A DNA stretch of 64,000 bases from Candidatus Micrarchaeota archaeon (GTDB taxonomy: Archaea > Micrarchaeota > Micrarchaeia > Anstonellales > Bilamarchaeaceae): the NCBI GenBank assembly GCA_038046805.1, contig JBBSVO010000004.1, positions 97,419-161,418 on the forward strand. The letters run 5' to 3'. Positions within the stretch are counted from its first letter, which is position 1; each line of letters opens with the position of its first letter. Positions 60,001-64,000 of this stretch are shown here, piece by piece. The position numbers are program-made.

Positions 60001-63000
60001 CAAAAATAAAACCATTTGTGGTAAGGCATTGGGATTTTCCAATAGGTGCTACAACCAATTAGCAAGAATAGAAAATAGACCAGATGAATGTAAACCAATC
60101 CTTTCTTCTGAACCAACAAAAGGCACATGCCATTATGCCCCGGGGGATTTTACGCCAAATTACTGCTCAATTTACATAAAATACGGTGGTTATGAAGAAG
60201 ATTATGGTGCGTGCATAGCAGAGGCATCAGATTATAACGTAAAATTGTGCACGCAGCTAAACGATATGAAACAACAGGAACTGTGCTTAGTCACAGTTTA
60301 TCTAAAAAAAGAAAACCTGACAGATCCCGAAGTCTGTCCCCTTCTGGAAGAGAAGAATAGACAGGACGATTGTAAATTAATTATAATAAAAAATAGTTGT
60401 GATGCAAATCAGTCAGACTGCAAAGTACGACGATGCCTTGATTTGGGATTCTCAGATATTTCCAGTTTAGATCTTTGCAAACAAAGGACTGCCAAGACCA
60501 CATGCAAAAACGATACAAAACAGTGCTCGGTTGATTTGTGCGAAGAACTTAACCTAAGCAATCAAAAAGAACTGGAAAGATGCGAAGAGATGGTATTTCG
60601 CAGTATTGACAAGAACTAGATGAGATCATAGAGAGAATAGAACCCGAAAAAGAGGGCGAACACGATGAAAAGTAAATTATTGCTCATTCTTATAATTTTC
60701 CTAGGAATCGTTCTGGGTTCACTCCTGATTTTCCTATTGTCTGATTTATATATGATTTTTTCCAACAAAATCCCTCTTTCGGCATATTTTGAATATACTT
60801 CATACAAACTTGAGTATGGTTGTCTGGATTGTTTTCAGCGGATGGAATCGTGCAGAGTTAAAGATAAAAGTACAATAGATTACAAGGTTATTGGTGGAGA
60901 AAAAGCAGAGGTTGGCAAAGAAACACATTTTGATATAAATGGAATGGAGATATGCAGTTTCGTTTGGTCTTATGGAATGGCAGATGCGTTTGGGTATTAT
61001 TACAAAAAAGCAGGGTGCCCACAGATAGAAAAATGCAAGATTATTTTCGGGGGGAGTTGAATATTTTATTTATAGGATTTGTTCTTTGAACCGCTCTCTG
61101 GTCCGCCGTAAGGTATATAATAGTATATTACACTAATTATAACTATGCGATTAAGGAGTAAGGCATTACTTGCAGTCAGTGCTGTTGCATTCATTAGATG
61201 CTCTGCTCCTTTGATTGAGGATGCACATGCGCAGGAGAGACCAGCAGTTACTGTACCAGTATTACCTGCACAGACACAGCCAACTGCTAAACCAGAGCAA
61301 GACGCGAAACCCGAGGAGGAAGCAAAACAGGAACCAAAATGCACTGGAGTTACTGTTGAAGAGATTAGAAGATGGGATGAGGAAACGACACGAGCTGGTC
61401 AAAGAGAGGAAGCATGTTTAATGACTGGAATTGAGTGCCTTTTTATAAGAACTTTAGAAGGGCATTATTTTGCTATGTCAGACATTGCAAAAAAGTTTAT
61501 GGTAATTAGTTTTGGATATAGAAAAGAGACCGTACAACCAACCGAAAAAATAGAACTTGGGATATTATTTGAAGACTACAAACATACTCCTGAAAAAGTG
61601 CCAATTAGTATCAGATTAGTTCGAAAATACGAAACTTCCGGTGTAACTATCTATGCATTTACTGTGCCTACCTCAACTGAAAAAGGAGAATCCCCTATTT
61701 TTAGCGAAACGATGCCTTATGCTTTTATAAGTGGTTTCCGAAGCAATACTTTAGATAAAGGTTATGGTCGTTTATGCCCTTGAGATAGACATTGTTATCT
61801 TTTTGTCTTAGTTATATATTGTTCAGCTAGTGCCAGAGCCCGACGAGCTTCTAAGTCGTTACCGTGGACGCTCAAACCAAATCGTTTAGAAAACAAAGCG
61901 AGTCGCTGTAATTCTTCCTCATTCTTAACCAGAAATTCCTTTTCATTCTCTGTAAATTGTTTTCTTTCTGCGGTTTTTCTCAAAATACCTCTAAGTTCTT
62001 CACCATCCAGCAGTTCTGGTTTAATCGTCTTATCTCCTAATTTCCCAACATCCTCCAACACTGCCCTTTCTAATCTCACTGCTTCATCAGTTGATTTGTC
62101 AGGCATTCGATGATACTCTGCTAGTTTGCTTTCAATCGCCAATCGTGCGGAATCCCAATCCTTGCTCAGGTAACGCTCTGTTTCATGCTGGGATATTTCA
62201 TGTCCTGTTGGCTCTCTGGCATGCTGTGCTCTGAAATTGTCAAATGATTGGGCGAACTCTGCTCTGGATTGCTCTGCTTTGGATTCTGCCTTTTCGTAGA
62301 CTTCCATTGCTCCTTTTACCTTTGGATTATCAAATAATTCAGGCTTGGATGATTGCAATGCAGGGATATCTTTGGACGATATATCCTCTCCGGTTGCCTT
62401 TGATAAATGCTTTACCAAACTATCTCTTGCTATGTCAGATGCCCCTTGTGCTACTTCAAATTCATGATGGGATTTTGCTAACCTGTTATCTTGATTTATT
62501 TCCTGCTTGTATTGCTCTGAAACACTGCGGATATGGTCTGGTGGTGCTCCTTGGAGCGATTCTGGCGGGCTTGTGACTTGGGTTTGCTCTGCTGTTCTCA
62601 ATGCTCTTTCAACATGGTCCGAGACTGCTTGTTTTATTACTGGGTTTGTGGATTCGGAGACTGATTTAACGCTCGGACTTGTTGGATTTGAACCGCACGC
62701 TCGGAAACGATAGGTATTTATTATTTATTAACTCTAAATACCACTATGCGATTAAGGAGTAAGGCGTTACTTGCAGTCAGTGCTGTTGCATTCATTAGAT
62801 GCTCTGCTCCTTTGATTGAATCGGCACATCCTGAGCCAACTGAAAAAGTCGGCTCAAGCTATTCAGAACCAAATAGAATAGAAGACGGAAAACGAAATCA
62901 AGATTTAGTTGGTTCTGAACATGCGCAGGAAAGACCTGCGGTTACTGCGCCAGTATTACCGGCACAACCAAGCGAGAAGCAGAAAGAAGAACCTGCGAAA

Positions 63001-64000
63001 CCAAAGCCTCAGGACTCAAGACCAGCAGACTGTCCCTCGGTGGTTTATGAGCCTGATGAGAGATGTGGGTTGGAAAGGAGAGAGTGGAAAGGCGGACCGA
63101 TTAGCGAGGAGGAATTGAATGAGGGAGAGAGAATATTATTTATCAAAAAAGAATTCAGAGATTGCTTAGGTCGATGGGCAAAGGAAGAACAAAGAAGAAC
63201 AGAAACGTATGACCGTACTGGAAAGTGGCCTAGAAAATCAGGAATAACATGTAAAACGGAGTCTAAAAAAATTCCTAAAACACATCGAGCACTTATGAAA
63301 TGCGGACCAGATGAGCATACGAACGCTTTTCAATTAACAACCGATGGAGCAGAGATAGCAATCATTGATGGAAACGATATTTTTATTAAATGGGATAATA
63401 CTCCCGCAACCTTGGTGATAGTTATTAAAAATGAAAAAACAAATGAAGAAACAACGTATCTGTTTCGACTCGTTAACCAACCAAGGTACGCGGTTATACC
63501 AAATGGAGATGGTAAAACTAGTGATTTAGTAGTCTGGAGTGGAGGCAAACAGATACGAATTAATCTAGATGTAAGTTGTACGCCCGTCTATAGTGAATAC
63601 CCGGATATTAAATAAAAAAATTAGTCTAATCTCTCAGCAGGTTGTTCAATGCTTCGTTTTAATAACGCGCCCCTACTCTCTCCTAACTTTTTATAATGAG
63701 ATAAACTTAGATTCTTTGAAAGTTTATCTATTTCGTGTAACTCATCACCATGCTTTTCTATGAATGCATGCATTTTTTGTATTTCTTCATCTCCATGTTT
63801 TTCAATGAACTCATCAAACTTCTTTTTTGACGAGAGCGCGTCTCCCCTTTCCACCAACAATCTCGCTCCCTCTTCATCCATTATCTTCGGATTTATCTTC
63901 TCATTTCCGCTCACCCTCCCCATATCCTCCAACACTGCCCTCTCCAATCTCACAGCCTCATCACTTCCCTTATCAGCTAACCTATGATATTCAGTTAACT

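Follow-up and report, generated by a model that had tools for sequence, protein, structure and literature searches.

The window analysed here, 64,000 nucleotides (nt) at the end of contig C4 in the 1.2-Mb, 86% complete genome of a Candidatus Micrarchaeota archaeon (G000), is best explained as holding part of a C-terminal-displacement array in which the swappable block is made of the 3′ ends of two convergent genes. One 3′ end encodes the variable tip of a giant membrane protein, g216, and the other the C-terminal part of an exported partner protein. The main gene is found at the close of contig C2, where six paralogous membrane genes are followed by the 1,221-aa g215 and then by g216. The genes named in the survey were each recovered at the position given, g628, g629, g630 and g631 in the window and g632 (plus strand) and g633 (minus strand) on contig C5. 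The features are as follows.

56949, 57727 and 58244 (56949..58272), plus strand: three more copies of the border element, delimiting other cargo
61086..61120, plus strand: border element E4, an uptake-sequence-like word followed by a GC-rich conserved stretch and, some 25-30 nt ahead of g628, a TATA-like box
61145-61783, plus strand: g628, 212 aa, exported partner of the distal orphan, with a Cys-containing leader, a Pro/Glu/Lys linker and a type-B mature domain
61795..62124, minus strand: variable tip (class II) of g629, ending 11 bp from the g628 stop
61795-62601, minus strand: g629, whole gene, within a 309-aa open frame that extends to 62724
62125..62670, minus strand: homology arm, composed of junction J and repeat unit X; it copies the 3′ region of g216 and is present in all three modules
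62688..62724, plus strand: border element E5, a diverged copy; the orphan head begins about 17 nt past its word
62746-63615, plus strand: g630, 289 aa, exported partner with a type-A mature domain; homologues are g632 on C5 and P0002 of the sister species
63621-64000, minus strand: g631 tip (class I), the first orphan, open at the contig end; it runs on past C4, via the collapsed arm, and reaches element E6 and g632 on C5
C2:164141-169319, plus strand: g216, 1,726 aa, open at the C2 end; outside the window
C5:943-1296, minus strand: g633 tip, joined to g216 via the arm; outside the window
C5:128-949, plus strand: g632, exported partner; outside the window

The layout of a main gene plus orphan cassettes, proposed in the survey, was confirmed: independent arrays are present in two species, and the old tips are under purifying selection. 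The convergent orientation of the partner genes also holds, with tip and partner stops −7 to +11 bp apart in all five modules from this genome and its sister species (G001).

The recurring junction into which g216 was said to run is present, as the last 90 nt of g216 correspond to window 62574-62663 (92% identity), but the shared arm measures about 500 bp and not 90-150 bp. Contigs C4 and C5 terminate in an identical 55 nt, and the C2 end and the C5 start have 55 nt each in common with the window at 62574 and 62617, indicating that the assembly was broken at this repeat. Depth was compared in four public runs, among which the three DNA runs represent three studies and gave concordant results; contig depth is approximate, and the source sample may be among the runs. 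In the contigs of these runs, 62171-62628 appeared as one collapsed piece at roughly 2-3 times the single-copy depth. The arm reached a depth of 30 against 12-15 for single-copy pieces in run X1, 36 and 49 (as two pieces) against 15-20 in X2, and 8.7 against 2-5 in X7. The contig linking 63999 back to 62126 had depths of 22, 43 and 4.4, and the link of the C5 start at 62671 had depths of 13.5, 11.2 and 2.8. Each module was near single-copy depth in runs from the three studies. An arm at two- to threefold depth together with modules near single copy is expected of a tandem array and not of alternative strain alleles, and the depths support one tandem array with about three copies of the arm. 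In the RNA run X15, low-depth contigs were found over parts of g628, g630 and the tips; they are strandless and may derive from DNA.

The order of the cassettes, and which of them is fused to g216, had been left open by the survey and are now resolved. A single predicted protein, P0005, runs from the g216 end (99.6% over 233 aa) through the arm into a g633-type tip, and P0022 reads from the antisense of the g632 5′ end (100% to C5 282-1) across the border element and the arm into the g631 tip (97%). These two, P0003 (g632) and P0004 (a g629 variant) are all assigned to a contig of 114,137 bp, and from the equal length we infer that they lie on one single contig. With E as the border element, the order is g216-arm-tip633 / g632-E / arm-tip631 / g630-E / arm-tip629 / g628-E, so that tip g633 is the one joined to g216 and the orphans are g631 and g629. 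Several array genes on the order-fixing contig have frameshifts, at which several of its proteins end. Because the window shows no indels against the public runs, these are likely assembly errors; they may otherwise be real inactivation in that strain.

The five tips of the two species belong to one homologous helical family with 20 invariant columns, and pairwise z values in the distal part range from 4.7 to 23. They form two classes, with three class-I tips (50-52% alike distally) and two class-II tips that have a gap in common. The tip identities given in the survey hold, at 62% for g631 and g633 and 38-41% for g629 against both. The arm is near-identical within the genome and 78% identical between species, and identity drops sharply to 21-52% in the distal tips. 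The divergence of class-I tips is no greater than that of the adjacent g216 repeat-1 region between species (56%). For the four of six pairs that were unsaturated among four tips (tip G1b, found later, is left out of this count), dN/dS was 0.17-0.24 and dS was 1.1-2.2. The dS of carA and corA between the two species is 1.1 and 0.8. Since the dS of the tips reaches or exceeds these values, the tips within one genome are as old as the species split or older, and the substitution pattern shows purifying selection. Arm alleles of other assemblies are mosaics, to which chimeric assembly could have contributed; P0004 differs at 14 residues, several of them in common with the sister species.

The tips, the partners and g216 gave no Pfam, PADLOC or meaningful NCBIfam match, in agreement with the earlier statement that no toxin domain is recognised in the tips. 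Profile and word searches returned relatives only at these loci and close alleles, the first metagenome scan gave no match, and the ESM Atlas no usable match. Restriction of the tips within the family was likewise upheld, as a real tip match among the 98 other family genomes was found in G001 only; the one extra match (E 2.8e-4) is an unrelated coiled-coil surface protein. Two weak order-level tip matches were rejected as unrelated coiled-coil proteins. The model of arm plus tip had a mean pLDDT of 61, with the tip mostly under 50, and its fold matches were generic helical hairpins in the arm only, so that fold searches barely probe the low-confidence tip.

The five partners have in common a Met-Arg-x-Arg-Ser-Lys leader, a hydrophobic stretch and a Cys, followed by a Pro/Glu/Lys linker, and by eye the leader is lipoprotein-like. 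Behind this export leader there are three unrelated mature domains. Those of g630, g632 and P0002 are homologous (38-51%), and those of g628 and P0012 have no detectable likeness to this type or to each other (z up to 2.4). The partner likeness reported in the survey therefore stands for g630 and g632 (43%) but fails for g628, which resembles g630 in the export leader and linker only. The partner genes are more polymorphic than the tips of the giant protein. Class-I tips are accompanied by homologous partners and class-II tips by unrelated ones in five of five modules, a match for which linkage alone could account. Tip class tracks partner class and the stops are adjacent, indicating that the variable DNA is one block containing both C-termini; its conserved flanks are the arm on one side and E plus the partner export leader on the other. 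The g628 mature domain is weakly related (E 5e-4) to exported proteins of C15 and C16, in a second array (C10/C15/C16/C3) where exported genes are amplified likewise, with leftover neighbour ends. The neighbours in that array do not match the tips, and its counterpart in G001 has the same leader with a different domain. The structure model of g628 had a pLDDT of 46, and complex prediction for the g630 domain and the g631 tip gave a score of 0.00 with shallow alignments, which counts neither for nor against binding.

The border element is a direct repeat of 30-45 bp found before each partner, with a word at its start and a TATA-like box at its end that may be the partner promoter. In the window it also separates two HicA/HicB pairs and duplicated DUF4015/GHL10-like genes with small membrane genes, and in G001 it is found by an ATPase gene as well. 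Its 19-nt core occurs five times in G000 and twice in G001, always at the array locus, and in none of the 97 other family genomes. The word TTGWDCCGCWC is present on both strands in 118 copies in G000 and 96 in G001, and in 1-23 copies in each of the 97 others; its 9-mer form was counted 220 times in 932 genes, versus 23-49 times in 10 synonymous shuffles. The word thus has the traits of an uptake sequence, being genome-wide, on both strands, beyond coding needs and clade-specific. Its reverse complement has seven letters in common with the Haemophilus-type uptake core. The word stands at 2 sites within DNA aligned between G000 and G001. ComEC and DprA were not found in either genome (84-86% complete), and a literature search for an archaeal uptake sequence returned none. 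Inverted-repeat arms such as palindromic attC sites would have were absent at the border element among the 25 longest of 38 pairs, and a sigma-70 promoter scan, whose model does not fit archaea, remained at chance level. An integron cassette array was considered and rejected, as no integron integrase (TIGR02249) scored over the cut-off in these two genomes, at 84-86% completeness (best 33 and 125 bits against 265). Three tyrosine recombinases of about 400 aa are encoded elsewhere.

An independent array, of two modules and with a new tip and partner, is present in the sister species. Metagenome contig L105 (6,310 bp), which is 99.9% identical to G001 contig C81 over 5.2 kb, contains in order tip G1b, partner P0012, a border element, the junction, the arm, tip G1a, partner P0002 and a border element. 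The G001 pair noted in the survey retains its identities of 64% and 51-52% but is an orphan module of this other array. A single module in G001 was ruled out, because the 24-nt overlap of C38 and C81 is the junction repeat and C81 starts with the orphan. Measured along g216, the orphan head of G001 begins some 25-30 nt further upstream than those of G000; its distance from the border word is 17 nt, as at E5. One ancestral joint followed by homologous exchange would be the simplest reading. The giant gene of G001 is not beside the array on its 9-kb contig.

According to hydropathy, g216 has a hydrophobic stretch at residues 10-28 and an anchor at 225-243. In 34 family sequences, conserved cysteines precede this anchor and an Arg-rich motif follows it, and the Ala/Glu/Lys-rich tail of about 1,480 aa is therefore probably cytoplasmic. 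The arm corresponds to copy two of an internal repeat of 140 aa, and its structure model is a helical hairpin. The N-terminal part of g216 is present in 92 of the 98 other family genomes. Among 40 fetched family loci with 41 giant proteins, the gene adjoins the six-paralog array or g215 in 28, and a conserved small gene, presumably resembling a PadR regulator, is present at 21, mostly next downstream; two giant genes stand in tandem at one locus. The tails are mostly unalignable between genera, indicating fast evolution throughout the family, and none of the 41 aligns with the G000 tips. At the same 40 loci neither a downstream repeat of the giant-gene 3′ end nor a partner homologue was found, suggesting that g216 usually works without this partner. 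The cassette array, found in this genus only, is thus a trait of one genus on a family-wide protein. Since g216 has no Pfam or NCBIfam match, it has no RHS, FHA, LXG, VgrG, PAAR or DUF1020 delivery domain; only one of 34 family N-termini matched anything (DUF7107), and the N-terminal profile matched no solved structure. One member of the six-paralog array weakly resembles CedA (E 0.004, 17 bits against a cut-off of 330), so that "VirB6/CedA-like" describes a resemblance of the cluster and not a family assignment, and g216 itself is not VirB6-like.

We consider it very probable that the array grows by displacement. A DNA block from a relative would recombine in the arm and give g216 a new tip, the old tip with its partner would be pushed downstream, and arm-to-arm recombination could reverse this by deleting a module or returning a stored tip. 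As for function, we tentatively favour, at somewhat below an even chance and by analogy, a putative kin-recognition or exclusion-type pair in which tip and partner are cognate and non-enzymatic. In this model g216 would be a subunit of the conserved six-paralog VirB6/CedA-like contact machine, and its long helical tail would be threaded out at cell contact. The tip would then be read as "self" by the cognate surface-anchored partner on the neighbouring cell, and this reading would halt the attack or the exchange, much as conjugation is blocked by TraG/TraS entry exclusion. Older partners, all with a TATA-like box of their own, would persist because the population still contains earlier tip types that they recognise. 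The predicted locations of tip and partner are on opposite sides of the membrane, and the recognition model therefore requires a translocation step, here putative.

Selection may also have acted on the exported partners alone, as variable host-attachment surface proteins or anti-virus decoys, with the g216 3′ end as an insertion hot spot and the tips as passengers without a functional tie; we regard this as possible but, on balance, not probable. Three unrelated partner domains behind one leader are consistent with such cargo, as are the border elements flanking HicAB pairs, glycoside-hydrolase-like genes and the G001 ATPase gene, and the second array, which amplifies exported genes alike and includes the weak relatives of g628. 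The family-wide fast evolution of the g216 tail and the similar divergence of its neighbouring repeat between species agree with it as well, and the purifying selection could stem from the tips' time as ends of intact donor genes. However, every orphan frame is open and complete modules occur in two species, tip and partner classes are concordant throughout, and the fall in identity from arm to distal tip is abrupt. Less probable still, and rather unlikely, is a true polymorphic toxin-immunity system, in which the tip would be a new toxic domain that the VirB6-like machine delivers to competing cells or hosts, with the partner as its neutraliser at the cell surface. The toxin side of the survey's reading is not supported. 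Convergent immunity genes occur with pore-forming colicins, which counts for this reading. The tips also have invariant polar residues (Tyr-His, Asp-Lys, Asp-Glu-Ala and Glu-Arg), but these lie in the conserved and not in the variable part, and the tips have no hydrophobic hairpin. The layout resembles Rhs and polymorphic-toxin arrays as described in extracts of two accounts (PMC2935791, PMC8416519), yet the tips are variants of one helical family and not unrelated domains, with no meaningful match in Pfam, NCBIfam or PADLOC. In addition, a second membrane anchor precedes them and they are predicted to be cytoplasmic; a toxin there would require cytoplasmic immunity, but the partners are exported, and orphan 3′ cassettes were absent from the 40 family loci. 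That the array is an artefact of assembly or of mixed strains, or that it arose by recent tandem duplication of a neutral kind, is very unlikely and already largely refuted: the genome's own assembly is broken at the arm, contig depth is rough and one run is possibly the source sample, but modules are near single-copy depth in runs of three studies, single predicted proteins bridge both breaks, two modules share one 6,310-bp contig in the sister species, and a synonymous divergence of at least 1 among tips excludes recent duplication.

We next compared the array with known systems. In the parts of the Rhs account that bear on displacement, cores are identical, tips are old and conserved, and exchange takes place among close relatives (PMC2935791). 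The present array is similar to Rhs, CdiA and MafB arrays in that dissociated tips, each beginning with a copy of the conserved core, stand behind an intact main gene, and to Rhs arrays in that the tips are old and conserved, not rapidly mutated, with exchange limited to close relatives (PMC2935791, same parts). Unlike in those systems, the tips here form one homologous family, none with a known toxin fold. The partner gene is convergent, and its exported product exchanges a C-terminal domain of its own. The carrier, in contrast to Rhs and two-partner-secretion proteins, is a two-anchor membrane protein of a DPANN VirB6/CedA-like cluster. For the type VI secretion (T6SS) effector-immunity arrays of Vibrio cholerae, homology-facilitated illegitimate recombination is the route proposed in the sections concerned (PMC5361080). 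There, as here, the main gene acquires a new module at its side, the old partner persists downstream, and one genome contains alleles of different lineages (PMC5361080, same sections). In contrast to them, the old tip is kept here with an arm of about 500 bp, no link to a T6SS was found, and toxicity would be an assumption by analogy. Compared with polymorphic toxins in general, orphan cassettes and a varying adjacent partner are present, and unrelated tips and a known delivery domain are not.

In entry exclusion, as outlined in part of PMC7555446, TraG is proposed to extend its C-terminal part to the contacted cell, where a small and highly divergent cognate protein would read it. TraG/TraS of F-like plasmids and TraG/Eex of R391 also resemble the present pair in having a large type-IV-like membrane subunit with a variable C-terminal patch, although TraS is described there as an integral membrane protein and the partners here are lipoprotein-like and exported (PMC7555446). 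No sequence homology to these proteins was found, and the present system, unlike theirs, is chromosomal and archaeal. Exclusion pairs are not known to have orphan-cassette arrays. The nearest archaeal parallel is VARTIG of Thermococcales, which, in the portion of the source concerned, has a toxin-like layout without an identifiable toxin and for which self/non-self recognition is one hypothesis (PMC8416519). Both are archaeal and lineage-restricted and have a recombining C-terminal part, but VARTIG is described with Ig domains and co-directed arrays (PMC8416519, same portion), and the array here has helical tips, convergent partners, homology arms and a border element. Type IV systems have been described in bacterial Patescibacteria, according to an extract of PMC12102498. 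No counterpart of the array in DPANN or Micrarchaeota was found in literature mostly outside the subscription journals. The array is genuine and represents a variation, so far undescribed, on a known genomic strategy. Its two gene ends are exchanged together in an unusual tail-to-tail arrangement, the protein families are uncharacterised, and it has been seen so far in two species.

The array bears on how DPANN archaea choose attachment targets and avoid each other, and the tail of a family-wide uncharacterised giant protein is a possible business end of the VirB6/CedA-like cluster. The five natural tip-partner pairs from two species form a small matrix for binding or toxicity that can be assayed without culture. 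If the partners are the selected cargo, the locus would still show clearly how a reduced genome can diversify its surface in a cassette-like way. A more far-reaching proposal, which we regard as speculative and doubtful, is that the VirB6/CedA-like cluster conserved in Micrarchaeota serves as a contact machine, whose allele-specific key for self-exclusion is the g216 tip and whose lock is the partner at the surface. Key and lock would be placed tail to tail for a swap in one event, old locks would be archived, and the blocks would move as DNA tagged by the genus-specific uptake word. If this is true, the array would represent a kin-discrimination system of a DPANN symbiont, and the word possibly an archaeal uptake sequence.

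The border element, the 30-45-bp direct repeat found before each partner gene, also lies on both sides of two divergent HicA/HicB toxin-antitoxin pairs, which are located between two copies of a DUF4015/GHL10-like gene.

Features of the window
54916-56922, first DUF4015/GHL10-like gene region
57201-57652, first HicA/HicB pair
57784-58234, second HicA/HicB pair
58237-61060, second DUF4015/GHL10-like gene region
54667, 56949, 57727, 58244, 61086 and 62688, copies of the word TTG(AA/AG/TT)CCGC(A/T)C

The DUF4015/GHL10-like copies share 90% identity along 1.3 kb; in their 3′ part the figure is 71%. 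Each is followed by a small membrane gene, to which a Cys-rich lipoprotein-like gene is added after the second copy. In the sister species (G001) different genes occupy this place. A repeat of about 60-70 bp was also observed at 57039-57141, with copies on contigs C3, C4 and C6.

A second collapsed array, in which an exported protein and a helical protein are encoded by co-directed pairs, was noticed in the genome under study (G000), and a copy of it is present in G001.

Parts of the second array
G000, C10, start
G000, C15 (L082)
G000, C16 (L083)
G000, C3, end (L084)
G001, C35 (L098:6012-7407)

Its exported proteins are weak relatives of g628, the partner of the distal orphan module, and its helical proteins have low-complexity, swappable ends; on C10 a leftover end lies upstream. 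The G001 exported protein keeps the leader of its G000 counterpart with a different domain, and this new domain itself resembles part of the helical neighbor.

An additional class-I tip, P0008, was found on a short contig, where it adjoins the junction almost immediately and the arm repeat is largely missing. Elsewhere, two g216-family giant genes stand in tandem (L062, G079:C115:1-5649); they are 81% alike along a 740-bp stretch close to the 5′ end and differ in their tails. In another genus (L099, G121:C1), the giant gene is followed by a convergent gene at 5222-6289 for an exported-looking 355-aa protein, which gave no match when compared with the array partners.

Three tyrosine recombinases of about 402 aa sit in variable-looking regions of G000, where none of XerA size was found; G001 has one of that size (279 aa).

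Tyrosine recombinases of G000
C4:77951-79159
C6:167198-168406
C11:6568-7779

The word that opens the border element, TTG(AA/AG/TT)CCGC(A/T)C, occurs on both strands across each genome, with 118 copies in G000 and 96 in G001 versus 1-23 in each of 97 other family genomes, and its over-representation is genus-specific. Within genes, its 9-mer form was counted 220 times versus 23-49 in synonymous shuffles, which exceeds coding needs. The word resembles an uptake sequence, and such a role may be considered a candidate.
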